Virus record (IMG/VR): IMGVR_UViG_2778261069_000012 | Location: 1 to 30,877 of that record | Source: a virus | Lineage: Duplodnaviria > Heunggongvirae > Uroviricota > Caudoviricetes | Direction: 5' to 3' (one strand) | DNA: 30,877 nucleotides | Shown here: piece by piece, positions 1 through 15,703 of the stretch | Numbering within the stretch: position 1 is the stretch's first letter | Layout: each line of letters starts with the position of its first letter | Program-made: the position numbers and the translations under genes | The notes under the pieces: model-generated | What the model was told of the DNA's origin: nothing | Seen by the model: the letters and a program-made list of their open reading frames with translations, nothing else | Database searches by the model: none

Positions 1-450
1 ATGATCAATACTAAAACTCCTTTCGTACTTCTGGGTCTGAACCATGATGATAATCTGGATATGATGCATGTTTTCGCTAATCGTGGTTATAACATCATTC
101 GTCATTCCGAAGACTCCAATTTCTCAACTGCTTTCTATGCTCTTAAACGTAATGGTCGCCCTACGGTGATCGTAGACTGCTTTACTGATGAAGGTCGTGA
201 ACAATACAACAACATTCCGGCAATTATTGTTCGTGATGACCTGCCGTTTGATGTTCGTGAATATGACGTTGATTTAGGCTCTTACTATGGGATCGCCGAT
301 CTTGACCAGATTATGGCTGATTACGGTAAACAACCCGCTCAGGAAGCCCCAGAAGAAGATGAACAAGACGAAGATGACGACTACGCACCAATCTGTTTCT
401 CTTCTCAGAATGGCTTCTACGGTTACGATGAAGGCTTAGATATGCTGTAA
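1..450 (+). CDS. hypothetical protein with acidic C-terminus; may be 5'-truncated by the window edge
   Basis: 149-codon ORF starting at nt 1; E/D-rich tail (EEDEQDEDDDY); no motif recognised. Confidence 0.5.
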   Translation: MINTKTPFVLLGLNHDDNLDMMHVFANRGYNIIRHSEDSNFSTAFYALKRNGRPTVIVDCFTDEGREQYNNIPAIIVRDDLPFDVREYDVDLGSYYGIADLDQIMADYGKQPAQEAPEEDEQDEDDDYAPICFSSQNGFYGYDEGLDML

Positions 451-486
451 GTTAGGTCAACCCTTTGGCGTCTTGTCAAGGGGGTG

Positions 487-515
487 TTGACAAAATTTTC
501 TGACTTTTTTATGAT
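487..515 (+). promoter_or_regulatory. sigma70-like promoter candidate
   Basis: TTGACA (487-492), 17-nt spacer, TATGAT (510-515), about 55 nt upstream of the ATG at 572; sits in a cluster of TTGAC-type hexamers. Confidence 0.4.
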
Positions 516-571
516 TATCGCACTTGACAATTTTGAACCTATTTGACCTAGATTTGTAAAGAGGATGTAAC

Positions 572-904
572 ATGAAAGAATTTACCATCACTAAATCCCT
601 GTATGACTGGACTGTTAAAATCTCCGGCAAAACCGTTTCTGTAAGCCCTAGCCATGTAGAAAATGATTGGGGCGTATCCCGTGAAACAATCTCCCGTAGT
701 ATGCATGTTCCGTTTGATCTGATGTCCTTAACTGGTATTCATGCAATGCTGGAAGTTCGCGAACAATTCGAAGCTGGTAATCACAATGCGGCTCCAGTTA
801 GCAATCACCTTCTTACCAATGAAGAACGTGAAATCATCGAAAACTGGCGTTATGAGTATGCGATTCCTTACTACGAAGAAGATCAGGTAGAAATCGATTG
901 GTGA
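572..904 (+). CDS. hypothetical protein (110 aa)
   Basis: ORF preceded by AGAGGA Shine-Dalgarno about 7 nt upstream; no motif recognised. Confidence 0.55.
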   Translation: MKEFTITKSLYDWTVKISGKTVSVSPSHVENDWGVSRETISRSMHVPFDLMSLTGIHAMLEVREQFEAGNHNAAPVSNHLLTNEEREIIENWRYEYAIPYYEEDQVEIDW

Positions 905-993
905 TAAATTTCTATTATAAATAAAATTGTTCCGGTGATGCTGCCGGAACTAGGAGGACCAAATCACTAAACCGTTTAAGGGGAATTTTTACT

Positions 994-1869
994 ATGAATA
1001 CTGTTACTACTATGAATACTGCTACCGTTTCTTTTGATGCTTCTCTGACTGCTACAAAGAAAGAATGGCAAATCGCTAAACCTGCTTCAATGTCTCTGGT
1101 TGTTGATAACACCAAACCGCTTACCATGTCTACTTTGCAGATCGCGCAAATGATGAATCGCGTAGACCGTCATCGTGATATTAAGCGAACTGTTGATCGC
1201 CTTGTTGCTTCTGGTGTAATCGTCCACACGCCAACGGCGCGCGAACAATTAGAGGATAAATTTGGTCGTTCTCGTGAAATTGAAGTTTACCTTCTTGATG
1301 AACGTTCCTCTTACATTGTTGTTGCTCAGATTTCGCCAGAATTTACCGCTTTTATTGTTGATGAATGGAAACGACTGAAAGAAGAAAATGAAAAACTTCG
1401 CTCGACTCCTGTTAATCCATACGAAAACTTCGAAGAAACAGATTGGATTGAACTGGCGTTAGAGAAAACCCGCGAAAATAAACGCCTTGTTGAATTGCAT
1501 GTACGTAAAGCTATCGACACTCACAGCTTAACCCGTCTTCTGGGCGAAAAACGCGGCTCTGTGAAGGTACAAATGATTCTGAAAGGGTTATGTGCTGCTG
1601 GTGTCCTTGAGCGTCGTCTGGATGCTTCTGGTAAGCCTAACGGCTATGATCTGCTGCCTCCTGGCTATATGTTCGCTCGTATGTCGGCACACGGTCAGAT
1701 CGAGTTCACTGCTGATGCTATCCCGCATCTCGTAAAACTCGGATTGCTTGAAGAAGAAAAGGCAGCAACTTTGAAATTGCCACAGCCTAACAACTCACGA
1801 GCAATCGTCAATAATACTGCTTTGCTGATTCGTCAGAATGCTGGATCACTGGAACACTTCGGATTGTAA
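994..1869 (+). CDS. Rha-family phage regulatory protein (antirepressor-like)
   Basis: Residues 45-115 (LTMSTLQIAQMMNRVDRHRDIKRTVDRL ... YLLDERSSYIVVAQISPEF) resemble the Phage_pRha domain from memory; SD AAGGGGA upstream; intrinsic terminator follows. Confidence 0.6.
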   Translation: MNTVTTMNTATVSFDASLTATKKEWQIAKPASMSLVVDNTKPLTMSTLQIAQMMNRVDRHRDIKRTVDRLVASGVIVHTPTAREQLEDKFGRSREIEVYLLDERSSYIVVAQISPEFTAFIVDEWKRLKEENEKLRSTPVNPYENFEETDWIELALEKTRENKRLVELHVRKAIDTHSLTRLLGEKRGSVKVQMILKGLCAAGVLERRLDASGKPNGYDLLPPGYMFARMSAHGQIEFTADAIPHLVKLGLLEEEKAATLKLPQPNNSRAIVNNTALLIRQNAGSLEHFGL

Positions 1870-1877
1870 TAATTTTT

Positions 1878-1903
1878 GCCCCTGAATTTCAGGGGCTTTT
1901 TTG
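1878..1903 (+). terminator. rho-independent terminator after the Rha-like gene
   Basis: GCCCCT / AGGGGC stem, 7-nt loop, then TTTTTT. Confidence 0.7.
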
Positions 1904-1988
1904 TATCTGGAGTTTTTCGCTGAAACCCTGCAATACAGATTTTCGAAATAATCAATGACTTAGAGATGTGCTCAGTTTTGAGCGGATA

Positions 1989-2018
1989 TAAAAAAAGGCC
2001 AACCCCGAAGGATTGGCC
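1989..2018 (-). terminator. rho-independent terminator for the minus-strand cassette
   Basis: GGCCAA / TTGGCC stem with 10-nt loop; the minus-strand transcript follows it with a U-run (A8 on the + strand at 1989-1996). Confidence 0.6.
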
Positions 2019-2025
2019 TAGAGAA

Positions 2026-2256
2026 TCAAATTCCTGTTGCTTCTACCATTTCACCATCAACCTGAACAAAGAATTTCAAATCAACTTTATGGAGTGATTT
2101 GTAGAATTGAGCGATTGAAATACCGTGTTCGCTCAATACTTGTTCTTTTTCGGCTTTACCTTTCGGTGCTTGATAGTACGCTTTTACAATCGCTGCCAGT
2201 TGTTCACGATCAAAACGGCAAGGACGACCGCGAGTAGCTTTAGTAGTCATAGTCAT
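2026..2256 (-). CDS. small basic protein, putative DNA-binding (AT-hook-like RGRP motif)
   Basis: 76-aa ORF; N-terminal TRGRPCRFDREQL and HTH-like EHGISIAQFYKSL; co-oriented with the 200-aa ORF upstream of it. Confidence 0.5.
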   Translation of the reverse strand: MTMTTKATRGRPCRFDREQLAAIVKAYYQAPKGKAEKEQVLSEHGISIAQFYKSLHKVDLKFFVQVDGEMVEATGI

Positions 2257-2284
2257 TTCTCCAAATTAAAGTGAATGTTCACCT

Positions 2285-2887
2285 TTATTTAGAGGACTTA
2301 CATTTTATCGGAAAAAGTTCTCCATCGTCAACCGACATAAAGAACTCTGCCTTAATCCCGTACTTCTTCAACCGTGAATAGTATGTACCCCGACTTATAT
2401 CAACCTTGCGCAGCACTTCGAAGAACTCTTTAGGATCGTTGTAATAATGGCTATATCGCACGTTAGCGAGTTCAACGAACAATTCCCTTGTATCACCATA
2501 CCCTTTCTTGAATGCCTCGTTACGATAGCGTGTAACAGCGTGATTCAATCTCTTCTGTTTCAACACTTCTCGGATCGGCTTCCACTGCAACCTATAGATA
2601 GGACCGTCATCAATGCGATAATAACGCTTGATATCAAAATCAAACCAATCTCGGACTCTCCGAAACTCTGTATGTGATGTTCTATGCTTCTTAAAGAAGT
2701 TGTGAACGTCTGTATAACCATTATCACGGTAAAATTCTATTAAAATCTCTTTCGCTTCCTCACGACTAAAACCGGATGTTGTGTAATCAGTCTTTAAGTG
2801 CTTATGCTTGACTGGCAAACGGTATTCATGATCGGTACAAGACAAGGCTAATTCTAATTCATCTCTTTGTTTCTGATTAATTAGCAT
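2285..2887 (-). CDS. hypothetical basic, aromatic-rich protein with C-terminal HTH-like segment
   Basis: 200-aa ORF; SD AAGGGGG directly upstream on the minus strand; C-terminal [17 protein letters not shown] looks HTH-like; divergent from terL. Confidence 0.55.
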
Positions 2888-2974
2888 ACAACCCCCTTAA
2901 ATCTTAATACCCGTATTTATCAGAAAATCAACAATTTAATAAATACCTTCATATTTCGTAATGAGGGTAATTAC

Positions 2975-4879
2975 ATGAAACTGATTTCTAATAAGGCCAA
3001 ATTAAAAAAGATTCTCAGAAATGCAGCCAAATATATTACGCCACCGCCTAAGCTCCTTCCTTCTGAATGGTGCGAAGCGAATATGGTGCTGGTAGATGGT
3101 CCTCAAGCTGGGGATAAAGTTAAATTGCTGTCATTTCAGAAAGGTATGATTGATGCTCCTTTCCTTGAGAATAAGAAAAAATATGTTCTGATGACCAGTG
3201 CGCAGATCGGAAAGACTACCATCTTGAACGGTATCCTGTTTAACCAGATGGCTAACGATCCATGCAATATGATTATCGGACAATCAACCGCTAAAGAAAT
3301 GTCTCAATATCTCGCTGGTAAGATCCGACCGTCTATCGAAGCATGTGATGCATTAAAAGACGTGGTTACAGACAAGAATGATCGCAATGCTGTTAACAAC
3401 AATAACCAGCTACAGCTAAAAACGAATCACTTCCTATACATGGTATCGCTTACCAGTCCATCAACCCTACGTGGTAAGACCGCAAAGGTTGGATTGCTTG
3501 ACGAAATCGATGCTGCTACAGCCTCAGAAGAAGGTGATCCGGTGGCACTTGCTGCTAACCGTTTAACTACCTTTGGCGATGAAGGTCGATTAGTCGTATC
3601 CAGTACCCCGACCAGTAAGCTCGGAAGCATTAACCAGCAATGGTTATCAAGTGACATGCGTATGTTTTTTGTTCCGTGTCCTCATTGTGGGGAGCATCAA
3701 GTAATCGAGTGGGAAAACGTACAGTTTGAATGGCGTAACATCGATGGCAAGAACTTACCCGATCCTGATACCGCTCGTTATATTTGCCCACACTGTAAGC
3801 AATCATGGACAGAAGGGGAACGAATCAGGGCAGTAGCGCAAGGCGAGTGGAGAGCAACCCGTGAAAGTGAAGTAGCAGGATTCTGGATTAGCCGTCTGTA
3901 TTCACCTTTCAGCACGATCCGCGCTTGTGTGGTTGATTTTAGTCATGCGTGGCAATCCTTTGATTTACAATCATTTTATAACACCGTGTTAGGTAAGGTA
4001 TACGATGATCAGGACACGGCAGTAGAAGCAAATGAACTGGAACAACTCAAAACAGATGTTTCTATCGAGAATATCCCTGATGACGTGATTTTCTTGTGTT
4101 CGGGAATTGACCAGCAATTGGACCGCGCAGAATCTACCATCTTAGGTGTCGCGAAAGATAAGGTTTACATTCTGGATCACCGCAGCTTTTACGATCATAA
4201 CTGTGAACGATATGAATCACCTGTATGGGATAGATTAATCAACTTCCATAAAACCAAATTTACTACTGTATCGGGTGATCGTGTTCCTATGCTCGCCAGC
4301 TTCCTTGATACATCGAACGGTCGATTCACTCAAGCTGGATACCGTATTTGCGGCAAGTGGAAGAACTTACACGCTATCAAAGGTAGTTCTGCTGGTAACG
4401 CTCCGATCATTCCGGTTAAACCTACCCGCACAGGTGGTCATGAATTGCTTATGTTGGGTGTTAACGTGGGTAAAACTGCATTTCGTGAAATGTTGGCTAG
4501 GAACCTGAAAGATAATCCTCATATTGGCTTAGAAATATCAGACACCGTTCCTGATGATTATCTCGATCAGCTTTTAAGTGAATCTGTCAAGCGTACTACT
4601 ACTGGCGTGAGATGGGTAAAGAACCCAGGCGTTAGGAACGAGGCGCTCGACTGCGCCGTGTATGCTACAGCGGCTTCTCGCTACGTCCTTTCAAAAATGT
4701 CATGGGATAAACTCATTGCAATGAAAGACAGCTTAAACCGTGTTGTCGAAGAACCCGTAAAAGCTCCTAAATCGCAATCTAACGAGCAAATCGAAGAAAC
4801 TAAGCCAATCACACGACCGCAACGTCAAAACATCGCCAGACGCCCAAATAGAGGCCGTAGCTGGGTAACATCGTTCTAA
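2975..4879 (+). CDS. terL: terminase large subunit, lambda GpA-like family
   Basis: 634 aa; P-loop-like [10 protein letters not shown] near the N-terminus; CPHCGEHQ ... CPHCKQSW zinc-ribbon pair; position upstream of the portal gene; SD GAGGGTAA. Confidence 0.88.
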
Positions 4880-4885
4880 TAACTC

Positions 4886-4903
4886 GCCGTCCTTCGGGGC
4901 GGC
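4886..4903 (+). other. stem-loop with UUCG tetraloop just after terL
   Basis: GCCGTCC-TTCG-GGGCGGC (one G.U pair); no U-tract follows, so probably not an efficient terminator. Confidence 0.35.
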
Positions 4904-4951
4904 TTACTCCTAAATATTGTTAATCCAATAACAATTAAATAAGGGGTAATT

Positions 4952-5446
4952 ATGAGTTTAGAACTAATTCCCTTAGTAATTCGTAAAGGCGAAAAAATCA
5001 CGCTGGCGAATGAAGAGGGTGTAACAATTCAGGTAGGAAATAATAAAGGTATCATTTATCAGGTTGATGATTCTCCGGCTAATCACGAGATTAAAACCTT
5101 AGATTTTGCCGAGGGTAAATATACCATCGTAATAACTTTGGATGAAGAACTGGTATCAATGCAGGAACTAACTGTTTTGCCAGTATTCGCCAAACAATCC
5201 AAAAAAGAATATCTGCGGGAAATTATCGCCTTAATCGAGCAAGTTATTTTCGCCCGTTTATCTGGGGACGAAGCCGCATTATCTGCAATGACCGTGAAAG
5301 GGAATACTTTCGCCTATGAGTCATTGGGTGTTCTCCAGCAATTGAAGACTGATTATGAACGTCAGTTATCTAAAGTAATTCAAGCCGAACGACGTAAACA
5401 GGGAATTAGCCCTATTAAAAATATCAAATTACGTCTGACGCGATAA
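4952..5446 (+). CDS. hypothetical protein between terminase and portal
   Basis: 164-aa ORF with SD AAGGGGTAA; function assigned by position only. Confidence 0.5.
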   Translation: MSLELIPLVIRKGEKITLANEEGVTIQVGNNKGIIYQVDDSPANHEIKTLDFAEGKYTIVITLDEELVSMQELTVLPVFAKQSKKEYLREIIALIEQVIFARLSGDEAALSAMTVKGNTFAYESLGVLQQLKTDYERQLSKVIQAERRKQGISPIKNIKLRLTR

Positions 5447-5456
5447 GGGGTAAATC

Positions 5457-6968
5457 ATGTTTAATCTTTTTCGACGCAAAAAGGCGGTAGAAACTCCAGT
5501 TAAAACTAATCACCGCCAGCAACAACAAAAAATCTTTATCGACAAACAAGTAGAAAAATTCCAGAAATCTCTGGCGACTCGTAGTTTAGGACTGGTTGGT
5601 GATCGTATTGATGGATCACTTCAACAAGACACCATTACAGGAACCTTCAATAAGGCTCTCAAATCGAACGGTAAGCGCCTTTATGATCAGGGTCGTACTC
5701 TGGCCTTAAACACTTCCGTTGGCAGTCGCTACACGCAATACATCACCGATATGGTGGTTGGTACTGGTCTAGATCCGAAGCCGTCAATCGTTAAATCGAA
5801 TGGCAAACTTGATAGCGCACTGAATAAGCAGATCGAGAATGCTTTCTGGAAGTGGGCGCAGAATGCTAAACGCTTCTCTCGTAACGGTCGCTTTAACTTC
5901 CGTGAACTGCTGGTAATGGCTGAACGTGAGCGCGTTATGGGTGGTGAGTGCTTCATCGTTTTAACCAAAGAAAACAATGAGTTAAATGTTTCTATCCTGT
6001 CTGCTGATAAATGCGACTGGACGCTCAACCGTGAAGTAAGCAAAGAACGCGCTATCTATCAGGGGATCGAGTATGACGTAGAAACAATGCGCCCTGTTGC
6101 ATACTGGTTTCGTAAAATCAACCTACTGACTCAGACTTACACAGGTGATAACTATAGAGTCGAGGCTTCGCAAGTATGCCATTATTATCAACCACTTGCG
6201 GCTGAATCTCTGCGTGGTGTGACCGACTTCCTGCCAGTGATTAAGGATATCGCACATCAAGACGCATTCCGCTTAACTGCTATCGTCCAGAAACGTATTG
6301 CGGCTAGTTCTATGGGCTTTATCGAGCGTCCGAAAGATTCTGGTGACGATTTTGATACTGGTGAAGATGATGAACAATATCAAGCGCCGGAAGTAGTACA
6401 GGATTTTGCACCGGGTACTATTCAGGAATTACCGGAAGGGGCAACGATCAAGAGCATCCAGGCGACGCAAAGCGGTGATGACTTTAACAGCTTCAATGAT
6501 GCGATGTTTACTAGCGTATCAATGGGCTTAGGCGTGTTTAAACAGGGCTTAACGGGAGATTGTTCACAGATCAACTACTCAGCCGCACGTTTTGGTGAAC
6601 TACTTCAACGTAACCGCGTTAAAGCACTTCAAAACAAATTGATTGAAACAGTGGTGTTGCCAATTTTCGAAGCGTATCTACGCCATTATTCCGCGCGTGG
6701 TGTTGTTCCGATTCGTATTACTGCAATTCCACATATTATCGATAATACAACTATTATTCGTCCGCGTTTCGAGTCTGTCGATGTTATTAAAGACGTAAAC
6801 GCTGATATTGCTTTAATTGATAAAGGACTTAAATCACGTACTGCCGTTATTCTTGAACGTGGTGATGATCCTGAAAAAGTATTCTCAGAGATTCAAGCCG
6901 AAAAGAGCGCACTAAATATTATCGTTAATGGCGAGGGTGAAGAAAAAAATTCCCCAGCCGATCCCTAA
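5457..6968 (+). CDS. portal protein (lambda gpB-like family)
   Basis: 503 aa; follows terL; central and C-terminal segments (e.g. SGDDFNSFNDAMFTSVSMGLGVFKQGLTGDCSQINYSAARF) resemble the lambda-type portal family from memory. Confidence 0.82.
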   Translation: MFNLFRRKKAVETPVKTNHRQQQQKIFIDKQVEKFQKSLATRSLGLVGDRIDGSLQQDTITGTFNKALKSNGKRLYDQGRTLALNTSVGSRYTQYITDMVVGTGLDPKPSIVKSNGKLDSALNKQIENAFWKWAQNAKRFSRNGRFNFRELLVMAERERVMGGECFIVLTKENNELNVSILSADKCDWTLNREVSKERAIYQGIEYDVETMRPVAYWFRKINLLTQTYTGDNYRVEASQVCHYYQPLAAESLRGVTDFLPVIKDIAHQDAFRLTAIVQKRIAASSMGFIERPKDSGDDFDTGEDDEQYQAPEVVQDFAPGTIQELPEGATIKSIQATQSGDDFNSFNDAMFTSVSMGLGVFKQGLTGDCSQINYSAARFGELLQRNRVKALQNKLIETVVLPIFEAYLRHYSARGVVPIRITAIPHIIDNTTIIRPRFESVDVIKDVNADIALIDKGLKSRTAVILERGDDPEKVFSEIQAEKSALNIIVNGEGEEKNSPADP

Positions 6969-7013
6969 TAACCAACGGGGGCGCAATGCCCCCAATTAAT
7001 TAAAGGTGATTAA

Positions 7014-9017
7014 ATGCTTAAATTTCGCCGCGATCTTAACGGTTACGGTGGAGTTATTAATGAAGGGCATAACGATCAATACGAATTTGAAATTGCTTTC
7101 TCAAGTACACAGCCTTATCAGCGCCAATTTTGGGATGAGCAAAATCAAGAAATGGTGGTATTAGATGAAATTCTGGTACATACACCGGAAGCGGTTGATC
7201 TGTCTCGTCTGAATAATAACGCTCCGTTGCTGTTCAATCATAATTTCGATAATCACATTGGTGTTGTTTGTAACGCTCGAATCGATGCGGATAACGTAGG
7301 TCGTGCTCTGGTTAAATTCTCCAAGCATGGGACTTTGGCTAATGATATTCGTAATAAAGTCATTGAAGGTACGATGGAAAAAATTTCTGTCGGTTATGAC
7401 ATTAAAGAATATCACATCGATTATGCCAAAGGACAATTGATTGTTACTAAGTGGGCACCCTATGAACTCTCATTTGTCACCGTTCCCGCAGACGATACGG
7501 TCGGTTTAAATCGCTCTCTAAATACTATCACAGTTAATTTGGAGGCTAAACGCGATATGACTAAAGAACAAATCGAAGAAATCAAAAACGAAGAACCCGC
7601 TCAGGTTGAAGAAACTCCGGTAGAAGAAAATAAAGAACTGGAAGTTGAAGAAACTCAAGAGCGCCAAGTTGAAGAGAATAAAGAAAATGAAAATCTCGAA
7701 GACGGAAAAGACGCTGAACATCCTGAAAGTGTTGATGATGATAGTTCAACTGTTCGGGAAACAGAAGAAGTAAAAGAAGAACGTGAAGCCGCTCCGATTG
7801 AAGAAGAAAAAATCGAAGAAGTGGCTGAACGTTCCGAAGAAGACGAATTAGAAATCCGCGAGATCGCGCGGGAACTAAATATTGACGACGAAGAGTTAAA
7901 ACGCGCATTGGCAATTAAAGACATGACGCCGGAAGCATTCCGAACTAAGGCACTAAATAATCTTGTCAATGCTCAACGTAATAACGAACAACAAATTAAG
8001 GACTCTAAAATGGAAAAAACTTTTGACCTGAACAACGTAATTCGCTCTCTGGTAGATGGTGCTGCTCTGGGTGCTAACGAAGCTGAATATTCCGCAATGG
8101 CTGCTACTGCAACTATGCAGCGTGGTCGTGCTGCTCGTGGTGGCTCTGTATTCGTTCCGGCTGCTGCTATGCGTGCTGCTTCTGCTGGTAACACCAAAGC
8201 TGACCTGACCGCTATCACTGACGAAAAACTGATGACTGAATCCTACATCGAAATGCTGATGCCGGAATCTGTTCTGGGTCGTCTGGGTGTGACTGTTTAC
8301 AGTGGCTTGAACTCCCCGACCGCTATTCCAAAAATGACTAAATCCAGCGTTGACGCTTTCGGCTTCGTTGATGAAAACGGTGCTGCACCGGAAAGCAAAG
8401 CTGAATTTGCGAACGTGAAACTGTCTCCGAAAACTTTTGCTGGTGGCAACCCGATCAGCCGTCAGTCGCTGAAAACCGTTCCGGGCATCGCTACCCTGAT
8501 CACCGATCACATTAACAAATCTGTTCGGATCAAACTGGAACAACTGATTCTGTCTGATAAAGAAAATGCTCGTGGTCCGGCTGGTCTGGTTAAGCAACTG
8601 GTAGACGCTAGCCGCGTTACCAAGAAAGCTGCTTTCTCTTATAAAGATTTCCTCAAGGAGATTGCTCAGCTTACGGACGCTGGCGTTCCTGCTCAGGCGA
8701 TCAAGTTTGCAATGAGCGGTGCAACTGCTGCTGAACTGGAATCTACCCTGAAAGATAACGGCGTTTCCGGTTATATCATCGAAAACGGCAAACTGGCTGG
8801 TTACGAAGTAGTTACTTCTGGCGTTATCCCGGCAGACCACATCGTTCTGGGTGACTTCTCCGGTATTACTATCGGTGAGTGGGGAGGTCTGGAACTCGAC
8901 ATGGATCTAACTACATATAGGGATCGTGGTGCGGTAGTGCCTCGTATCTTTGTAGATTTGGACTACGTTGTAGCACAGCCGGAAGCCCTGAAAGTTCTTC
9001 ACATCTCCGCTGAATGA
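7014..9017 (+). CDS. prohead protease / scaffold-like linker / major capsid protein fusion (HK97 fold)
   Basis: 667 aa; N-terminal about 170 aa with LLFNHNFDNHIG motif typical of HK97-family prohead proteases; E/K-rich acidic linker (aa 185-300); C-terminal about 340 aa capsid-like; position after the portal gene. Confidence 0.78.
   Translation: MLKFRRDLNGYGGVINEGHNDQYEFEIAFSSTQPYQRQFWDEQNQEMVVLDEILVHTPEAVDLSRLNNNAPLLFNHNFDNHIGVVCNARIDADNVGRALVKFSKHGTLANDIRNKVIEGTMEKISVGYDIKEYHIDYAKGQLIVTKWAPYELSFVTVPADDTVGLNRSLNTITVNLEAKRDMTKEQIEEIKNEEPAQVEETPVEENKELEVEETQERQVEENKENENLEDGKDAEHPESVDDDSSTVRETEEVKEEREAAPIEEEKIEEVAERSEEDELEIREIARELNIDDEELKRALAIKDMTPEAFRTKALNNLVNAQRNNEQQIKDSKMEKTFDLNNVIRSLVDGAALGANEAEYSAMAATATMQRGRAARGGSVFVPAAAMRAASAGNTKADLTAITDEKLMTESYIEMLMPESVLGRLGVTVYSGLNSPTAIPKMTKSSVDAFGFVDENGAAPESKAEFANVKLSPKTFAGGNPISRQSLKTVPGIATLITDHINKSVRIKLEQLILSDKENARGPAGLVKQLVDASRVTKKAAFSYKDFLKEIAQLTDAGVPAQAIKFAMSGATAAELESTLKDNGVSGYIIENGKLAGYEVVTSGVIPADHIVLGDFSGITIGEWGGLELDMDLTTYRDRGAVVPRIFVDLDYVVAQPEALKVLHISAE
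7556..7900 (+). repeat. low-complexity acidic E/K/V-rich linker inside the capsid fusion ORF
   Basis: Reiterated GAAGAA / EE(x)K(E) motifs; generates spurious antisense ORFs. Confidence 0.6.
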
Positions 9018-9151
9018 ACTCCTGTAGAACCATCTGAACCTTCCCCCGATTTGGGGGAAGAAAATCTGATTCCTAAACCGGAAGAAGATTCCCAGACGGT
9101 TACGGCGAAAGCCACAGTTAAAAAACAACGTAAAACTAAAGAATAATAATT

Positions 9152-9178
9152 AGCCCTGCCTAACGGTGGGGCTTTTTT
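9152..9178 (+). terminator. rho-independent terminator downstream of the capsid gene
   Basis: AGCCCTGCC / GGTGGGGCT stem (two G.U pairs), TAAC loop, then TTTTTT. Confidence 0.7.
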
Positions 9179-9208
9179 GTATGTAAATACTCCATAAAGG
9201 GGGTAACT

Positions 9209-9499
9209 ATGTTCAAATTATCAGAATCACAATTATCAAGAATGTTCCGAAGTGCTCCTGTATTTTCGGTGGAAGGTGGTAAATCAATTCGTGCTTATCA
9301 TGAAATTACCACTACCGACGAACAAGGGGTAATTACAGAATCAGAATTTCTATTTTGTCGTGAGGGAGACTTAAATCAGGGTGATGTTGTCATTGTAGAC
9401 GGTGAACGCTTCAAAGTTCAATACGTTAAGCGCAATGGTGATAATACTTCTGATTGCTTTATTGCTCGTGCAGGGGGTACACATGCTCGCTACCGTTAA
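9209..9499 (+). CDS. hypothetical protein, head completion or head-tail joining candidate by position
   Basis: 96-aa ORF with SD AAGGGGGTAA; between the capsid and tail genes. Confidence 0.5.
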   Translation: MFKLSESQLSRMFRSAPVFSVEGGKSIRAYHEITTTDEQGVITESEFLFCREGDLNQGDVVIVDGERFKVQYVKRNGDNTSDCFIARAGGTHARYR

Positions 9500-9905
9500 T
9501 AATATGCCTAGACTGAAAATCAAACGCGCCTTGCAGGATATTATCGAACAAGATTTAGGTCTGGCTTTAAACGTAGAACAAACTCAGCAAGGCTTTAGTG
9601 ATGACGTGGTTTGTTGGATTACTGGCATGAATGAGACTTACACAAGGGTCCGTGGTGGTAATGCAATGCAAGCTGAATGCGTTATCGAAATGCAGTTGTA
9701 TTCTCAGAATCATGAAACCAAAATTCATGAGGGTATTTGCCAGATAATCCAGATTCAGCCTGATAATCCACGTTTTAAAGATTTGGGCTTCTCTATTTCA
9801 GATATCACTCCAGTAGCTTCTAATACCGATTATGACGATGATTCTAGTGATGGGGGTATCGTTGGGACACTTAGCCTTAAATTTTCTTATCTAGCGCGTT
9901 TTTAA
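9483..9905 (+). CDS. hypothetical protein, head-tail connector or tail completion candidate by position
   Basis: Start chosen at ATG 9483 (SD AGGGGG 5 nt upstream) rather than the SD-less ATG at 9402; overlaps the previous ORF by 17 nt. Confidence 0.5.
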   Translation: MLATVNNMPRLKIKRALQDIIEQDLGLALNVEQTQQGFSDDVVCWITGMNETYTRVRGGNAMQAECVIEMQLYSQNHETKIHEGICQIIQIQPDNPRFKDLGFSISDITPVASNTDYDDDSSDGGIVGTLSLKFSYLARF

Positions 9906-9914
9906 GGGGTAATA

Positions 9915-10748
9915 ATGAATATTACACAAGATAACTTAGACATTTTCACGGGGTCACATGTTGAAGTCTCCGTGTCTACTATGGTGGATAACCAGCCGGA
10001 CTTTTTCGATCCTGCATTTAGTCCTATCGAGAACATCGCAGCATTCCCGACGATAACCGAATCCACAGAGATCCAGACGTTAGAAGAGTATGATCAGGAC
10101 GCTACGGGGAAACTTGCTGGTTATCGTAAACTTGAATCAACTACGTTAGTAGTAAACCGTGTTCTGGATGACGAACATCAAGACATGTTGATGAAAGCGG
10201 TGAATGATAAAACTCCTTTACGCTTTCGTATGTTCTATGTTGTGAACTCTGGCTATAGTGCTGCTAACACAGGTTACTACGTCATTTTTGACGCTTATGT
10301 CTCGTCACATAAAACAAAATCCGGTGATAACAAAGTTACTACAATCGAGTTTAAATTAGAACCTGATGGCGGGATTCTAGATCGCGGTATTGCTACCGAA
10401 GGCCGGATCTTACGTCAAGGTGATTTTGGTTTGGGCGCTGGTGTACATCCATTCACAGGTCCGATTGATAGCGAAGCATTAGCCGGAAACCGTTTCGTAA
10501 CTTATCAGGGATCGAGCGTATCTAATCCATTTAGTGCTGATACTTCACTAATTCACGTTCAACCTAATGAAGATGGTGGATGGCAATTAACTTGCACCGC
10601 TTCCGGCGCACCACGTTTACGAGTTCGCACAGTCCAGAAAGACGGTAATTCTGGATGGGTGAAAGTGTATTCCACAGAAGAAAAACCGACACCAGCCGAG
10701 ATTGAAGCCGTTTCTATCCATGACCGGATCGACTTCGGGGAATACTGA
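9915..10748 (+). CDS. virion structural protein candidate (277 aa) with C-terminal KPTPAEI motif
   Basis: SD AAGGGGTAA; C-terminal EEKPTPAEIEAVS matches a motif in the downstream tail fiber; position just upstream of the fiber gene. Confidence 0.5.
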   Translation: MNITQDNLDIFTGSHVEVSVSTMVDNQPDFFDPAFSPIENIAAFPTITESTEIQTLEEYDQDATGKLAGYRKLESTTLVVNRVLDDEHQDMLMKAVNDKTPLRFRMFYVVNSGYSAANTGYYVIFDAYVSSHKTKSGDNKVTTIEFKLEPDGGILDRGIATEGRILRQGDFGLGAGVHPFTGPIDSEALAGNRFVTYQGSSVSNPFSADTSLIHVQPNEDGGWQLTCTASGAPRLRVRTVQKDGNSGWVKVYSTEEKPTPAEIEAVSIHDRIDFGEY

Positions 10749-10772
10749 TTGCTTCTCTAAATAAAACATGAC

Positions 10773-10806
10773 GCGGGAGGTTAACGCCTCCCTTATTCCT
10801 GTTTTA
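10773..10806 (+). terminator. rho-independent terminator
   Basis: GGGAGG-TTAACG-CCTCCC stem-loop followed by a T-rich tract (TTATTCCTGTTTTA). Confidence 0.6.
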
Positions 10807-10821
10807 TAGTGAGGTGATTCG

Positions 10822-13800
10822 ATGCAGTCGATCCAATTTAAACGAACAAATGTTTCTGGCAAAAAACCAACACCGGAACAATTACAGGTCGGTGAGGTAG
10901 CAATCAACCTTAAAGACCATGTTATTTTCACCAAAGACCGAGATCATGAAGTAGTTCAAATCTCTGTTTCTCCTGAAACTCACGCGGCACTAGAATCTAA
11001 AGTTGATGCTAACAAACAAGAATTGGATAGCACAATTGCAGTAAATGACCGCAATATTCACGCTAAAGTAGATGAAATTAAACAAACTACTGATGCAACC
11101 ATCGCAGCAAATCACGCAGAAATTAACAATAAAGTTGATGTAATTAAACGCGAAACCGACGCGACAATCGAGGCCAATAAAAATAAAGCTGCTTCCGATC
11201 TTGCTGGTGTTAAAGCTGAATTGTCGGATACCATCAACGCTAATAAAAATGCGGCTGCTGTAGCAACTCAGGAACTGGACACCCGCATCAATAAAAAAGT
11301 TGATGATATTAAATCCCGTACCGATGCAACCATCGTAAGCAATCACAAAGCAATCAATGACAAAGTTGATTTGATTAAGGCAGAAACTGACCGCACTATC
11401 GCAGCAAATCACGCCTATGCGGAAAATCAGTTAACTGACACCTACAATAACCTTACTGGTGTGATTGCAGCCAATAAGCAAGAGGCAGCGGATAACGTCG
11501 CAGCATTAACCCGTGATGTTGAAGCCAAAAATACAGCAATTCATAGCAAAGTTGACAATAACAAGTCTTACACTGATTCTGAATTGGCACGCTTAGAAAG
11601 CCGTATTGATGCAGCCGATGGATCAAGTGATGGTAAGTACATCAAAAAGCACGTAAACACTTGCACTGATGGCTATTTGCTGTCTAAGACCGCAAACCCT
11701 TTTGATGATCCGAGTGCTCTTAATCTTGATTACTTTGGTGCATTTCGCATGAATGACCTGGCGGGTCATATTGCAATGATCTTGCATGTTCCGCACCCAT
11801 CCGGCGTTAATCATGCTCGTGGTTTTGAGTTCACTTATGGGTCTAATCCGGTTCATACGGTAAGAACATACGGCTATGATGAATTGGGACATTTGGCATA
11901 TTCTCACCGCATGTATCATGAAGGTGATAAACCTACTCCGGCTGAAATTGGCGCATATTCGAAAGCAGAAATTGACCGCCTGTTCCAGAAGACGCTTAAT
12001 TTTGGGATCGAGGGCGGTTGGTTTAAACTCGGTAGTTTAACACTGCCACAGCAACACGGTCGCACGGCTAAGATTCGTTTAGTGGGTGGTAACGGTTATA
12101 ACGTCGGACAGAATGGACAAGCCAATATTATTGAACTGGTGATCCGTTGCGGCAACAATAGCCCGAAAGGTGTTGTATTCAATGCGTATTATACTATTTG
12201 GTATTATGAACAACATTTTTGTGCAATTCCTACCGATGGTGATAATTACGATCTTTACGCTTACTATGGTGCACATACAGGATTTGTTTTAGCAGAATAT
12301 CAAGTTTCTTCCGGTGGTGTTTCTTTAAACCTGTTGGATACTCCTGAATACCTGGGCGGTGAAAAACCTGTTGCAGATGAAATTTTTGATGCTCTTAACA
12401 TTTCATCGTTCAATAACTTTAGCAACCGTGGAACGTTAAATTTTGGTGGAAACCATCAAGGTCAATATGACATTGAGCATTTGAACGAACAACCGACAAA
12501 TGCTAAAAAGATGTTGCGTCGCTTCCGTAGTTCTGCTCCTGCCACTATCTGGCATGAGACAGTTGATGATAACGCATATCGTCTTGCTACTGGATACGAA
12601 GATACAAATCAGGAATTATTGCTGACAGCAACATCCGGGTTACATGTCAAGAAATTAACATTGGATGGCGGTGTTACTGGAAATTCTGGTATTGATATTC
12701 GTCGAGGACCAAACGAATCAAGTCATTTTAATTTCATGGATTATCGCACTGGACAAGATGTTCGTAATGGTTGGTTTGGTTTTGGTGATGGAACAACCAA
12801 AGATTTTATTTGGTGGAACGATAACGGTCAAAACTCTATAAACCTGATTGAAGATGGTGAATTGCATATTACTGGCGGTAAAGGCCAGAAAATTGTAATG
12901 AATAGCGAAGTTGCATTATCTGAAAATGCTCGTTTGGCTGTTAAAGGTGGCAATTATGGCTTAATTTTTAGAAATGATGGCGTTGGCTTCCATATTCTTA
13001 CCACAGATCTCGGTGATTCATTTGGACCGTGGAATACTCGTAGACCATTCAGCTATAATTTTGCGGACGGTGGATTATATTTAGGTGGTACTGAAACTGC
13101 TCGTTGTTTGCATCTGGGAATTGATGGTAGCACTCGTCTCGAAGACAACCTGTTCTTTAAAGCTGGTTCTCGTCAATCTATGGACTATATGGAACTCGTC
13201 CATTGGGGGGCAAGCAATACAGGTCGAAATAACGTTTTAAGTCTTCGTGACTCAAAAGGATTTTTCGCAGAATTTGAACGATTGGGTGATGATACCATTA
13301 AAAACACCTTCTTCGGGAAACTTAAAGTTAATCGTGGATCTGACGCAATCATCATGAATGCCGAAAGTGGCGATTCGTCTATATATTTGTTGGGTACTTG
13401 TGCTGATAATAACAACTGGTATATCGGTAAAGGTGGTGCTGATAATGGATTAGCGTTCTATAGCTATGCTACTAATGCTGCTATCAATATTACAAACGCG
13501 GGTGATATCGCGCTAAGTCCGAAAGGCGTCGAAATGACTCATGTCAATAACGTTCGGTTCTATGTTCATGGTGAACGTTGGACTGCTAGCCAATCTGGAG
13601 GCTGGGGCGATCAATGGGGATTAGAAGCGCCGATATTTGTCGATCATGGTTATGTTGGACCAGATAGCTATTATCCAATTATTAAAGGAAGAAGTTTAAT
13701 CACCAATCAAGGGTATACAACTGCCGTCGATTTTGGTATGCGTCGTGTTCCTCAAAATTGGGGGCAAGCTATTATTCGTGTTGGATCTGCGGAGGCATCG

Positions 13801-14232
13801 CCAGCGGCTGGTCATCCTCAAGCTGTATTCGAGTTCCATCATGATGGTACTTTCTATTCTCCTGGTAATGGTAACTTTAACGATGTTTATATTCGTTCCG
13901 ATGGTCGTCTGAAAATTAATGTTGAAGATTACGAAGAAAATGCGGTGGATAAGGTAAATAAACTCAAAGTTAAAACCTACGATAAAGTTAAATCTCTTAA
14001 TGACCGAGAAGTTATAGGTCATGAGATTGGTATTATCGCACAGGATTTACAAGAGGTATTACCGGAAGCTGTTAAAACCGCAAAAATTGGTGGTCTTGAT
14101 AACCCAGAAGAAATTTTAACAATTTCAAACTCCGCAGTGAACGCGCTTTTAATTAAAGCGGTCCAAGAAATGAGCGAAGAAAATAAACTTCTTCGTGAAC
14201 GTCTTGCTGCAATTGAAGCTAAATTAGGGTAA
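10822..14232 (+). CDS. tail fiber protein with C-terminal intramolecular chaperone (peptidase S74-like) domain
   Basis: 1136 aa; N-terminal KKPTPEQLQVGEVAINLKDHVIF fiber-type motif; four 22-aa KVDxIKxxTDATIxANH repeats; C-terminal GHEIGIIAQDLQEVLPEAV ... LLIKAVQEMSEENKLL typical of self-cleaving fiber chaperone domains. Confidence 0.85.
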   Translation: MQSIQFKRTNVSGKKPTPEQLQVGEVAINLKDHVIFTKDRDHEVVQISVSPETHAALESKVDANKQELDSTIAVNDRNIHAKVDEIKQTTDATIAANHAEINNKVDVIKRETDATIEANKNKAASDLAGVKAELSDTINANKNAAAVATQELDTRINKKVDDIKSRTDATIVSNHKAINDKVDLIKAETDRTIAANHAYAENQLTDTYNNLTGVIAANKQEAADNVAALTRDVEAKNTAIHSKVDNNKSYTDSELARLESRIDAADGSSDGKYIKKHVNTCTDGYLLSKTANPFDDPSALNLDYFGAFRMNDLAGHIAMILHVPHPSGVNHARGFEFTYGSNPVHTVRTYGYDELGHLAYSHRMYHEGDKPTPAEIGAYSKAEIDRLFQKTLNFGIEGGWFKLGSLTLPQQHGRTAKIRLVGGNGYNVGQNGQANIIELVIRCGNNSPKGVVFNAYYTIWYYEQHFCAIPTDGDNYDLYAYYGAHTGFVLAEYQVSSGGVSLNLLDTPEYLGGEKPVADEIFDALNISSFNNFSNRGTLNFGGNHQGQYDIEHLNEQPTNAKKMLRRFRSSAPATIWHETVDDNAYRLATGYEDTNQELLLTATSGLHVKKLTLDGGVTGNSGIDIRRGPNESSHFNFMDYRTGQDVRNGWFGFGDGTTKDFIWWNDNGQNSINLIEDGELHITGGKGQKIVMNSEVALSENARLAVKGGNYGLIFRNDGVGFHILTTDLGDSFGPWNTRRPFSYNFADGGLYLGGTETARCLHLGIDGSTRLEDNLFFKAGSRQSMDYMELVHWGASNTGRNNVLSLRDSKGFFAEFERLGDDTIKNTFFGKLKVNRGSDAIIMNAESGDSSIYLLGTCADNNNWYIGKGGADNGLAFYSYATNAAINITNAGDIALSPKGVEMTHVNNVRFYVHGERWTASQSGGWGDQWGLEAPIFVDHGYVGPDSYYPIIKGRSLITNQGYTTAVDFGMRRVPQNWGQAIIRVGSAEASPAAGHPQAVFEFHHDGTFYSPGNGNFNDVYIRSDGRLKINVEDYEENAVDKVNKLKVKTYDKVKSLNDREVIGHEIGIIAQDLQEVLPEAVKTAKIGGLDNPEEILTISNSAVNALLIKAVQEMSEENKLLRERLAAIEAKLG
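11065..11430 (+). repeat. in-frame tandem repeats (about 22-aa units) in the tail fiber shaft
   Basis: Four copies of KVD(E/V/D/L)IK(Q/R/S/A)xTD(A/R)TI(A/E/V)(A/S)N(H/K). Confidence 0.6.
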
Positions 14233-14238
14233 TTGGAA

Positions 14239-14258
14239 AGCGGGGAGAAATCTCCGCT
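14239..14258 (+). other. stem-loop with GAAA tetraloop between the fiber gene and the paralog cluster
   Basis: AGCGGGGA-GAAA-TCTCCGCT (8-bp stem, one G.U); no U-tract. Confidence 0.4.
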
Positions 14259-14270
14259 AAGGATTCTTAT

Positions 14271-14567
14271 ATGGGATATTGGGTAAGTAGTGAAATTAAT
14301 ACTAAAATCGATGCTTTAAAATGGCATGTATTTGATATTCCTAACGGCTATGGTACTGCTCGTGCTGGTGTCGCTGTAATGCGTCATAATGCTGGTGGTG
14401 GGTGGTCTGATGCACATATTAACGTAGATGGTTTGACCGTTGCTCGTCGTCGTGGTGGGACCAATTGGGGATCTACTATAAATTCGTTTGTTCCTGCTGG
14501 CTGCACCGTCTCCTTTGGTTTAGGGGGTGAAGGTGGTGTTGAATATTTTAAATTCATGGAGTTTTAA
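14271..14567 (+). CDS. small FDIPNGW-motif protein, paralog 1 of 3 (unknown function)
   Basis: 98 aa; SD AAGGA; shares WxxFDIPNG(W/Y), Gly-rich core and C-terminal TVSF ... YFKF with the two ORFs downstream. Confidence 0.65.
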   Translation: MGYWVSSEINTKIDALKWHVFDIPNGYGTARAGVAVMRHNAGGGWSDAHINVDGLTVARRRGGTNWGSTINSFVPAGCTVSFGLGGEGGVEYFKFMEF

Positions 14568-14569
14568 TT

Positions 14570-14876
14570 ATGGCTGGATGGATAAATCAAAGAATGTCAA
14601 ACGCTATTAGTATTTGGGCTAATGGTGGATATTTTGATATCCCCAACGGCTGGGTTACTGATTCATGCGGAATTGTTTTTGCTCATATGGAAGCCATTAA
14701 CGGTGCTGGTGATCTTGATTCTGAATTGGCTGTAAATGGATTGATTGAATCAGGTCATCATGCTGGTGATACTGGGAGTTGGGGGCGCTAGTTCTTTAGT
14801 TGGCGCTGGTGCTACCGTTAGCTTTACATTGGGTAAAGGTAGTTTGCATTATTTTAAATTCAGGAGAATGCACTAA
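14570..14876 (+). pseudogene. small FDIPNGW-motif protein, paralog 2 of 3, interrupted by a +1 frameshift at a G5 run
   Basis: Frame 2 reads M...GDTGSWGR then stops at 14789-14791; frame 0 continues ASSLVGAGATVSFTLGKGSLHYFKFRRMH to a TAA at 14874-14876, matching the paralog C-termini; the shift maps to GGGGG at 14781-14785. Confidence 0.6.
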
Positions 14877-15178
14877 TGGCATTTTGGGTAGATGGCGCTT
14901 TGGGGAATAGGGCGGGTAAAGCAAATCAAGGATGGTTTGATATTCCTAACGGTTGGACAGCCGACGCTTTCGGGACTATTTCATTCTGTGCTCATTCTTC
15001 CGGTGGTGGCGGTGGTGACTCTGAATTGCTTATTCATGGTTTGTGTGTTTCTGGAAGCCATAAGGGTCATGATTGGGGACAGATTCATTCTTGTATTGCA
15101 CCGCAAGGGGCGGTAATTACCGTTAGCACAAATAGGGGGATCGCTCATCTTCGTTATAGACGTTTGAGCAACCGCTAA
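14876..15178 (+). CDS. small FDIPNGW-motif protein, paralog 3 of 3 (unknown function)
   Basis: 100 aa; SD AGGAGA; ATG overlaps the restored stop of paralog 2 (TAATG). Confidence 0.65.
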   Translation: MAFWVDGALGNRAGKANQGWFDIPNGWTADAFGTISFCAHSSGGGGGDSELLIHGLCVSGSHKGHDWGQIHSCIAPQGAVITVSTNRGIAHLRYRRLSNR

Positions 15179-15232
15179 ATAAATAGAATTACGGGTATGT
15201 GCCCTATTGTTTAAAATAGAAGGAAAAGAATA

Positions 15233-15703
15233 ATGACTACTAAATTTGATATTTTTTCTGGTGGCCTCGTTGGTCTGTTTCTGCATGAAGAAGTAACTAA
15301 CACCGATCTAGACAGTGAAAGCTATCTGGAAATTCCAGAATGTGCGGCTTTCCCGGAAACTGGTGTAGAACGTTCTACTGTCGATGTTCCTAACTTCGGT
15401 GGTCCGTATAACCGTAAGCTGGTTGGTCGTATGTCTGTACCGGATATCGAACTTTCGATCAACTACATGCCGGGTAACGAAGTACACGAAAAACTGATTA
15501 AAGCAACCGAAGACGGTAAGCGCGTACAGATTAAAATTGCTTACTACATCGACGCTACGAAAAAATCTGGTGTACATATCGCTTATAACGGCTTCCTGTC
15601 TAAAACTACCATGACTGGTGGTGAGGATGCTGTAGTAGGCCGTACCTTCACCTTTGTAGTAGATGGTGCTCCGGTTAAACAAGCTGTTTTCCAGAAACTC
15701 TAA
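15233..15703 (+). CDS. major tail (tube) protein candidate
   Basis: 156 aa; directly upstream of the chaperone-position ORFs and tape measure gene; followed by a strong terminator, as expected for a highly expressed structural gene. Confidence 0.6.
   Translation: MTTKFDIFSGGLVGLFLHEEVTNTDLDSESYLEIPECAAFPETGVERSTVDVPNFGGPYNRKLVGRMSVPDIELSINYMPGNEVHEKLIKATEDGKRVQIKIAYYIDATKKSGVHIAYNGFLSKTTMTGGEDAVVGRTFTFVVDGAPVKQAVFQKL

Follow-up and report, generated by a model that had tools for sequence, protein, structure and literature searches.

The virus record IMGVR_UViG_2778261069_000012 (Caudoviricetes) supplies a stretch of 30,877 nucleotides, hereafter the window, whose major capsid gene is a fusion. 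The gene occupies positions 7014–9017 on the plus strand (as do all features below unless marked otherwise) and is a single open reading frame (ORF) of 667 amino acids (aa; 73.6 kDa) with an ATG start, which joins in order a prohead protease, an acidic linker, a helical domain and an HK97-fold capsid protein. Conserved internal start codons and a step in codon usage suggest that the same frame may also yield shorter, protease-less capsid subunits.

Architecture of the fused head gene

The ORF list of the window shows no internal stop in this frame. The annotated start is served by a Shine–Dalgarno (SD) sequence, AGGTGA (7004–7009), separated by a 4-nt spacer from the ATG at 7014 and invariant in 8/8 close copies. 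The 667-aa protein is identical to the NCBI entry 'phage major capsid protein [Escherichia albertii]', and the single ORF is kept in 120 near-identical database proteins (665–671 aa) and, uninterrupted, in 48 of the 49 complete E. coli genomes that carry the prophage. The sole split copy, in E. coli FXCREC043 (NZ_CP195866.1, 3058–5838), has an IS1A insertion in the acidic linker, past roughly codon 238. There the Prokaryotic Genome Annotation Pipeline (PGAP) gives the two pseudogene halves separate names, 'HK97 family phage prohead protease' for one and 'phage major capsid protein' for the other, and thereby confirms the two domains independently, although by accident. The original prediction, which placed protease, scaffold-like linker and capsid in one ORF, is borne out by the coordinates, the Pfam matches described below and the lack of a stop; a hidden frameshift or stop between the domains is rejected, since the frame is continuous in the window and in its copies.

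The N-terminal region (aa 21–169, 7074–7520) is a prohead serine protease domain of the S78/HK97 gp4 type with an assemblin fold. Peptidase_S78 (PF04586, 'Caudovirus prohead serine protease') matches aa 40–162 with an E value of 2.4e-10 and 41.2 bits, where the gathering score is 21; the score for the stricter TIGR01543 equivalog (NCBIfam HK97 proheadase) is 35.5, under its cutoff of 59. In an AlphaFold2 (AF2) model built on 79 diverse homologs (mean predicted local distance difference test score (pLDDT) 82), residues 21–169 are beta-rich with pLDDT >90, and the domain has the fold of the herpesvirus protease and T4 gp21. His76 (7239–7241) and Ser125 (7386–7388) align with the catalytic His65 and Ser114 of HK97 gp4, and the third invariant protease residue, Glu151 (7464–7466), is a possible member of the triad. 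Together these residues make up three of only five invariant columns among 79 homologs that are 24–43% identical to the query, and they are also invariant among the 120 close copies. The N-domain had been called protease-like at the outset; the Pfam family, the two established catalytic residues and the fold all agree with that assignment, and we predict that the domain is proteolytically active.

The protease is followed by a disordered acidic linker (aa 170–270, 7521–7823; AF2 pLDDT <50), hypervariable and indel-prone, whose acidic character extends in the charge profile to about aa 295. It had been described as a highly acidic, E/K-rich stretch of ~115 aa. The length and acidity hold (aa 181–295, 115 aa, 43% Asp+Glu, isoelectric point (pI) 4.05), but the composition is Glu-rich rather than E/K-rich, with 11% Lys+Arg. 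Indels among the 120 close copies fall mostly at aa 191–326. Across eleven homologs from phages and prophages, the region after the protease cannot be aligned between clades, the long Glu-rich insertion is confined to the window gene and a DCP80-like clade, and most of the other homologs carry a small 'KILRDAAGNLV' module in the linker position. The clustering of indels and the clade-restricted insertion suggest that the acidic stretch behaves as a length-tolerant tether. A scaffold role for this linker is unlikely, as it is unalignable and absent from most relatives.

A better candidate for the scaffold is the helical pre-capsid domain (aa 271–392, 7824–8189), which the AF2 model and the motifs conserved across clades make a probable equivalent of a scaffold or delta domain. 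Its predicted helices span residues 275–287, 292–300, 306–335, 339–348, 354–369 and 383–390 (pLDDT ~80–97) and match the segment that the eleven homologs conserve across clades, after which the capsid N-arm begins. Searched alone against PHROG, aa 271–392 gave no match. The 63 residues at aa 333–395 (8010–8198) are basic (pI 9.7), as opposed to the acidic linker at aa 181–295 (7554–7898), and this charge complementarity could matter for scaffold–scaffold or tether–scaffold contacts inside the procapsid.

The body of the HK97-fold major capsid protein occupies aa 408–667 (8235–9014). Phage_capsid (PF05065) matches aa 409–663 (E 5e-26), phmmer recovers PDB 8gta (E 7.8e-24), and Foldseek assigns a probability of 1.00 to the capsids of R4C (E 2.7e-18), D3, SaPI1, GTA and HK97. 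The order of protease, linker and capsid agrees with the domain order first proposed, but the capsid fold begins at about aa 408 and not directly after the acidic stretch; the helical residues 271–392 had been counted as capsid.

Between the helical domain and the capsid body lies a flexible hinge (aa 393–407, 8190–8234; AF2 pLDDT <50), the predicted maturation-cleavage region. The 629-aa product of gene 006 of Dinoroseobacter phage R4C aligns with the query end to end at 27% identity. The capsid chain of the R4C virion (PDB 8gta) has 268 residues, corresponding to R4C 362–629, and matches query residues 408–660 from chain residue 11; R4C residue 362 maps to about aa 396–400 of the query, inside the hinge. 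The R4C structure is a T=7 shell of 415 copies in which the protein is numbered as a longer chain, and the paper that describes it makes no mention of a protease domain or of cleavage (PMC10276861). The literature searched gave no usable N-terminal sequence or mass-spectrometry data for a fused capsid precursor. By homology to the first deposited R4C residue, the mature N terminus likely lies around aa 386–407, in which case about 395 residues (44.7 kDa) would be removed to leave a capsid protein of ~272 aa and 29 kDa.

Candidate internal start sites

Downstream of the protease domain, the frame contains conserved in-frame ATG codons preceded by ribosome-binding sites. The first candidate start (7541–7559) lies at the protease/linker junction, where GGAGG (7541–7545) is separated by an 11-nt spacer from the ATG of codon 182 (7557–7559). 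The duplex with the anti-SD sequence has a dG of -9.3, and the product would be 486 aa (53.0 kDa). At the second (7998–8012), AAGGA (7998–8002) is set 7 nt before the ATG of codon 333 (8010–8012), and the product would be 335 aa (35.4 kDa). Met182 and Met333 are both invariant in the 120 close proteins. The AAGGA-N7-ATG333 arrangement is kept in 8/8 close copies, in which 10 of the 23 upstream positions vary, some of them changing amino acids. A homologous AAGGA-N7-10-ATG stands directly before 'M-E-x-F-S-L' in four genes of a subclade that has no junction ATG (designated L108, L122, L127 and L132).

The junction arrangement of ATG and SD recurs in ten of eleven homolog DNAs, within a region that is otherwise unalignable. 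For a larger test set, 160 further viral-contig loci were taken and the collection was reduced to 62 non-redundant fused genes. A junction site was defined as an ATG that lies 5–50 codons after the protease motif and whose anti-SD duplex is at least as strong as -4 kcal/mol. Such a site is present in 39 of the 62 genes, whereas windows elsewhere in these ORFs lead one to expect 11.2; in 200,000 simulations the count never rose above 26. An SD stands before 56% of junction ATGs, compared with 22% of non-ATG codons in the same windows (Fisher p 4.7e-10) and 17% of ATGs elsewhere. The comparison with non-ATG codons of the same windows serves as a control for SD mimicry by Glu codons.

A weaker secondary bump of in-frame ATG and SD pairs appears within the capsid domain, 340–399 codons past the protease motif, where 10–14 of the 62 genes per 20-codon bin carry such a pair, compared with ~1–7 in most other bins downstream of the junction. 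This bump may reflect only a conserved Met beside Gly-rich codons.

A step in codon usage

The fraction of E. coli optimal codons (Fop) changes sharply along the gene. Codons 1–181 have an Fop of 0.50 and codons 182–667 an Fop of 0.77 (Fisher p 1.2e-10), with 0.79 in the capsid part and 0.76 in the helical part; the value for codons 1–181 resembles those of terminase (0.52), portal (0.58) and further prophage genes (0.50–0.62). The contrast recurs in relatives, at 0.50 versus 0.80 in DCP80 (p 3e-13), 0.43 versus 0.71 in L100, 0.51 versus 0.78 in L102, 0.62 versus 0.80 in Bas97 and 0.63 versus 0.72 in Arya.

Change points were located by maximum likelihood with the uninformative Glu and Lys codons excluded and are given here with their 2-lnL support intervals. 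The step of the window gene falls at codon 330 (328–340), where the nearest internal ATG with an SD is Met333, and that of L094, a 94% relative, at codon 344 (334–357), nearest to Met336. Earlier steps are found in DCP80 at codon 204 (188–240; nearest site Met180), in L100 at 196 (180–220; Met181) and in Bas97 at 221 (210–242; Met217). The remaining four lie in between or close to that of the window gene, namely Arya at 267 (257–309; Met258), L122 at 288 (279–304; Met277), L108 at 298 (290–309; Met296) and L102 at 329 (272–333; Met314). In L108 and L122 the step is at, or beside, the start homologous to ATG-333. The nine genes show likelihood gains of 8.6 to 33; under permutation, the 95th percentile is 4.7 and the 99.9th is 9.2.

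Once Glu and Lys codons are left out, the linker has an Fop of 0.53, close to the 0.46 of the protease, and the structured helices at aa 271–330 are also low. ATG-182 is not supported as a high-flux start of the window gene, given that the linker resembles the protease and the change point sits at codon 330. Poor codon usage of disordered regions is likewise rejected as the cause of the step in this gene, because the low Fop extends into structured residues. An ORF with a single start should feel uniform selection on elongation cost, and so the step supports internal initiation. On the comparative signals, Met333, with its 35.4-kDa product, is the best candidate for the main internal start in the window lineage; Met182 (53.0 kDa), whose homologous site is the family-wide one, could be a start of minor use or a vestige.

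Model and alternative explanations

The explanation that we favor, with a probability of roughly 0.7 (0.72) for the whole, is that of a three-in-one HK97-like head gene whose product cleaves itself at the hinge and most of whose capsid subunits come from an internal start and lack the protease. The full-length chain would comprise the S78 protease (His76/Ser125, probably with Glu151), the acidic tether, the helical scaffold-like domain and the capsid protein. Ribosomes would also start inside the ORF, best at ATG-333 and possibly at ATG-182, to give mostly protease-less subunits, and the enzyme would be delivered by the full-length form, a minority of the subunits. Full-length and abundant protease-less precursors would then co-assemble, and the protease would be encapsidated because it is covalently joined to a capsid subunit. 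From inside the procapsid, it would cut the hinge of all subunits (~aa 386–407) and degrade the N-terminal and internal parts, after which the shell would mature. The self-processing polyprotein of the original prediction survives here in part: removal of the N-terminal region fits the R4C chain (362–629 of 629), but a picture in which all subunits derive from one polyprotein is probably incomplete in view of the internal ATG and SD sites and the codon-bias step.

We consider it probable, on these two independent comparative signals, that the nested start is real. That it is both real and not yet described, with an internal ribosome-binding site and ATG (codon 333 and/or 182) yielding the bulk of capsid subunits, we put at even odds; no description of internal starts in the triple fusion was found in the literature searched, and an earlier one is possible.

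The strongest competitor holds that every subunit is made as a 73.6-kDa polyprotein, with protease and capsid at 1:1 and the N-terminal parts removed by self-cleavage. The internal ATG and SD pairs would then be relics of the fusion or chance, and the codon step would mark relaxed selection on the half that is discarded. Such a reading is in keeping with a continuous ORF that is annotated as one coding sequence (CDS) in every record seen, with a literature that describes the fusion as a single protein, and with the SD-like strings that precede 22% of junction-window codons in this Glu-rich sequence. A relic, however, is unlikely to stay 3.5-fold enriched in a region that cannot be aligned between clades, and the AAGGA-N7-ATG333 site survives amid local hypervariability. 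The step, moreover, falls inside a confidently predicted helical domain (aa 271–330 low in Fop, 333 onward high) rather than at a boundary between disordered and ordered or between discarded and kept residues, whereas selection on elongation cost is expected to be uniform along an ORF with one start. Packing points the same way. By a rough estimate, 415 full-length copies would bring 415 x 44.7 kDa, or ~18.5 MDa, of internal protein into the shell, which is very dense for a T=7 procapsid, compared with a modest load of 415 x 6.4 kDa if the internal part were residues 333–395; the estimate supports a mixed assembly of full-length and protease-less forms. We judge the polyprotein-only reading unlikely, if far from fanciful. 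Much less probable is a dead, degenerate protease fold that serves as a scaffold or assembly module while a host or other phage protease does the cleavage. The proheadase equivalog score, below its cutoff, would fit such a decay, but His76, Ser125 and Glu151 have remained invariant across homologs in which little else is conserved, the S78 score exceeds its gathering threshold, the assemblin fold is confirmed, and Pfam and PHROG matching of the window ORFs found no separate protease or scaffold gene in the head module. An artefact, in which sequencing or assembly error joined two genes, has nothing in its favor beyond the separate genes of most HK97-like phages, and its probability is close to nil: besides the 120 database proteins and the 48 intact E. 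coli copies, hundreds of independent phage genomes and metagenomic contigs align end to end, and the only split copy is explained by an annotated IS1 insertion.

Several observations nevertheless weigh against internal initiation and hinge cleavage as proposed here. Pairs of Glu codons in acidic linkers readily produce SD-like strings, an effect for which the analysis controls without eliminating it. The junction ATG and SD pair is missing from 23 of the 62 genes under the criteria used, no nested CDS is annotated in the ten GenBank phage records inspected, and a localizable codon-bias step is missing from some genes, for example L132 and L128. Fop is scored on E. coli optima, and E. coli may not be the host of the IMG/VR loci. 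In the window lineage the two signals favor different starts, since the step lies at codon 330 and not at ATG-182, and it could stem in part from weaker accuracy selection on the destroyed part or from module mosaicism. The position of cleavage, for its part, is mapped only by homology to the first deposited R4C residue.

The fusion itself matters little, as the architecture is well catalogued and an identical protein is already public; the nested start, as read from the comparative signals, is the only part with some discovery value. If internal initiation does occur, a covalent fusion could avoid packing 415 protease domains into each procapsid, and the dose of protease would be set without a separate gene. 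More than 1,000 matching viral-contig stretches, which the records seen now treat as one 'major capsid protein' CDS, would hide a second product, and the annotation of the family would be corrected. The principle of lambda C/Nu3 and UL26/UL26.5 would extend to a gene in which the C-terminal part common to both forms is the capsid protein, and protease delivery, scaffold and shell would form a compact single-gene system for studying and engineering HK97-type assembly.

Antisense frames and genomic context

The antisense ORFs that the original prediction had dismissed as spurious products of the linker are judged spurious here too. They span the linker and capsid regions on the minus strand (7518–8840), at 7518–7721, 7582–7914, 7655–7969, 7973–8218 and 7953–8840 (295 aa), with a further one at 7161–7436 outside this span. 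None has a significant match in Pfam or PHROG; the sole match listed, of 7161–7436 to Anp1 (E 0.049), is far below the cutoff. The 295-aa ORF is codon-aligned with the sense frame, and the sense frame uses no TTA, CTA or TCA in codons 315–631. The antisense frames stay open because these sense codons are scarce, a side effect of the strong codon bias, and we reject them as genes. The G+C content of 8001–9000 is 0.49, against 0.39–0.45 in the rest of the window, and is likewise raised by the strong translational codon bias of the capsid-coding part rather than by foreign origin.

Upstream of the fused gene lie a lambda-type large terminase (2975–4879), a head–tail joining protein (4952–5446) and, directly preceding it, a portal of the lambda family (5457–6968; PF05136, E 3e-63). 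Small ORFs of unknown function and then tail genes follow. The portal and capsid segment is present in 49 of 5,426 complete E. coli genomes at ~93–95% nucleotide identity and is always chromosomal; PGAP labels the E. coli copies 'phage major capsid (family) protein'. The host setting is an Escherichia albertii / E. coli prophage.

Other parts of the window also stand out. Upstream of the packaging genes lies an ORF (994–1869) with a match to anti-repressor Ant families (phrog_63, E 1.5e-15). The region 11685–15194, which holds the distal part of a 1,136-aa tail-fiber gene (ORF 10822–14232) and small downstream ORFs, shares 79–97% DNA identity with T4-like coliphages; the best match (97%) is the long-tail-fiber distal subunit region of phage KFS-EC, and an E. 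coli copy has, downstream, a gene that PGAP names 'receptor recognizing protein Gp38'. By sequence, a temperate lambda/HK97-like prophage seems to have acquired this region by recombination as a T-even gp37/gp38 adhesin cassette. Two ORFs that both match the 'major tail protein' phrog_158 (9915–10748 and 15233–15703) flank the cassette, and it is unusual for a fiber gene to sit with the head genes on one side and those for the tail tube and tape measure on the other.

Family breadth and comparison with known systems

The rarity implied for the fusion was overstated. The fused protease–scaffold–capsid architecture is already known, and the query is a member of a large, named family. It matches PHROG 617 over nearly its full length (E 4.8e-93, aa 23–662 versus profile positions 26–621 of 626), and PHROG 4523 carries the name 'major head and protease protein'. 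NCBIfam NF045541, scaf_prot_MCP2 (prohead protease/major capsid protein fusion protein), matches only aa 22–350 at 132.2 bits, under its cutoff of 525; as that cutoff is narrow, the query is taken as another sub-lineage of the same architecture. By tblastn, relatives of both halves occur in 93 phage records, with Rhodobacter, Xanthomonas, Escherichia, Roseobacter, Pseudomonas, Halomonas, Burkholderia and others as hosts, and all phage records inspected have one CDS of 600–685 aa directly after the portal gene. An exhaustive search of 50%-identity cluster representatives returned 478 clusters at E <= 1e-30, and nearly all of the top 150 are 565–700 aa long and matched at both ends. Scans of viral contigs with two clade alignments found relatives encoded in at least 585 and at least 558 stretches, out of about 600 listed by each.

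The closest relative in a cultured phage (43% identity) is in the record of Escherichia phage DCP80 (PQ671644.1, within 1–13786). This record is classified as Straboviridae/Gaprivervirus and is 140,978 bp long; its first ~14 kb carry a lambda-type terminase, a portal and a fused capsid gene, all labeled 'hypothetical protein', and two phages may have been joined here in a chimeric assembly.

In HK97, the protease is recruited non-covalently, and the capsid protein gp5 has an N-terminal delta domain. The query shares with gp4 and gp5 the protease family with aligned catalytic His and Ser, the capsid fold and, by prediction, an N-terminal assembly domain that the protease removes, but HK97 encodes them as two genes, whereas here the protease is covalently joined to the capsid. 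Its nearest counterparts are fused genes such as R4C gp6, RcCronus gp7 (Rhodobacter), phiHAP-1 ORF5 (Halomonas) and those of E. coli phages ECO1230-10, ep3 and Bas97 and Burkholderia phage Mica. All have the same order of S78 protease, variable linker, helical segment and PF05065 capsid in the same place after a lambda-family portal, and align end to end with the query at 25–43% identity; the long Glu-rich disordered insertion sets the query apart from these R4C-type fusions and is common only to the DCP80-like clade.

The proposed nested start has its closest parallels in lambda C/Nu3, herpesvirus HSV-1 UL26/UL26.5 and Haloferax virus HFTV1 gp17/gp17.5, in which an in-frame internal start after an assemblin-fold protease gives an abundant protease-less scaffold that shares its C terminus with a rarer full-length form (bioRxiv 10.64898/2026.09.13.751334). 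The corresponding signs in the present gene are conserved ATG and SD sites and a codon-bias step, from which we infer internal initiation. In those three systems the capsid protein has a gene of its own, and what the two forms have in common at the C terminus is a scaffold; in the present gene it would be the capsid protein itself.

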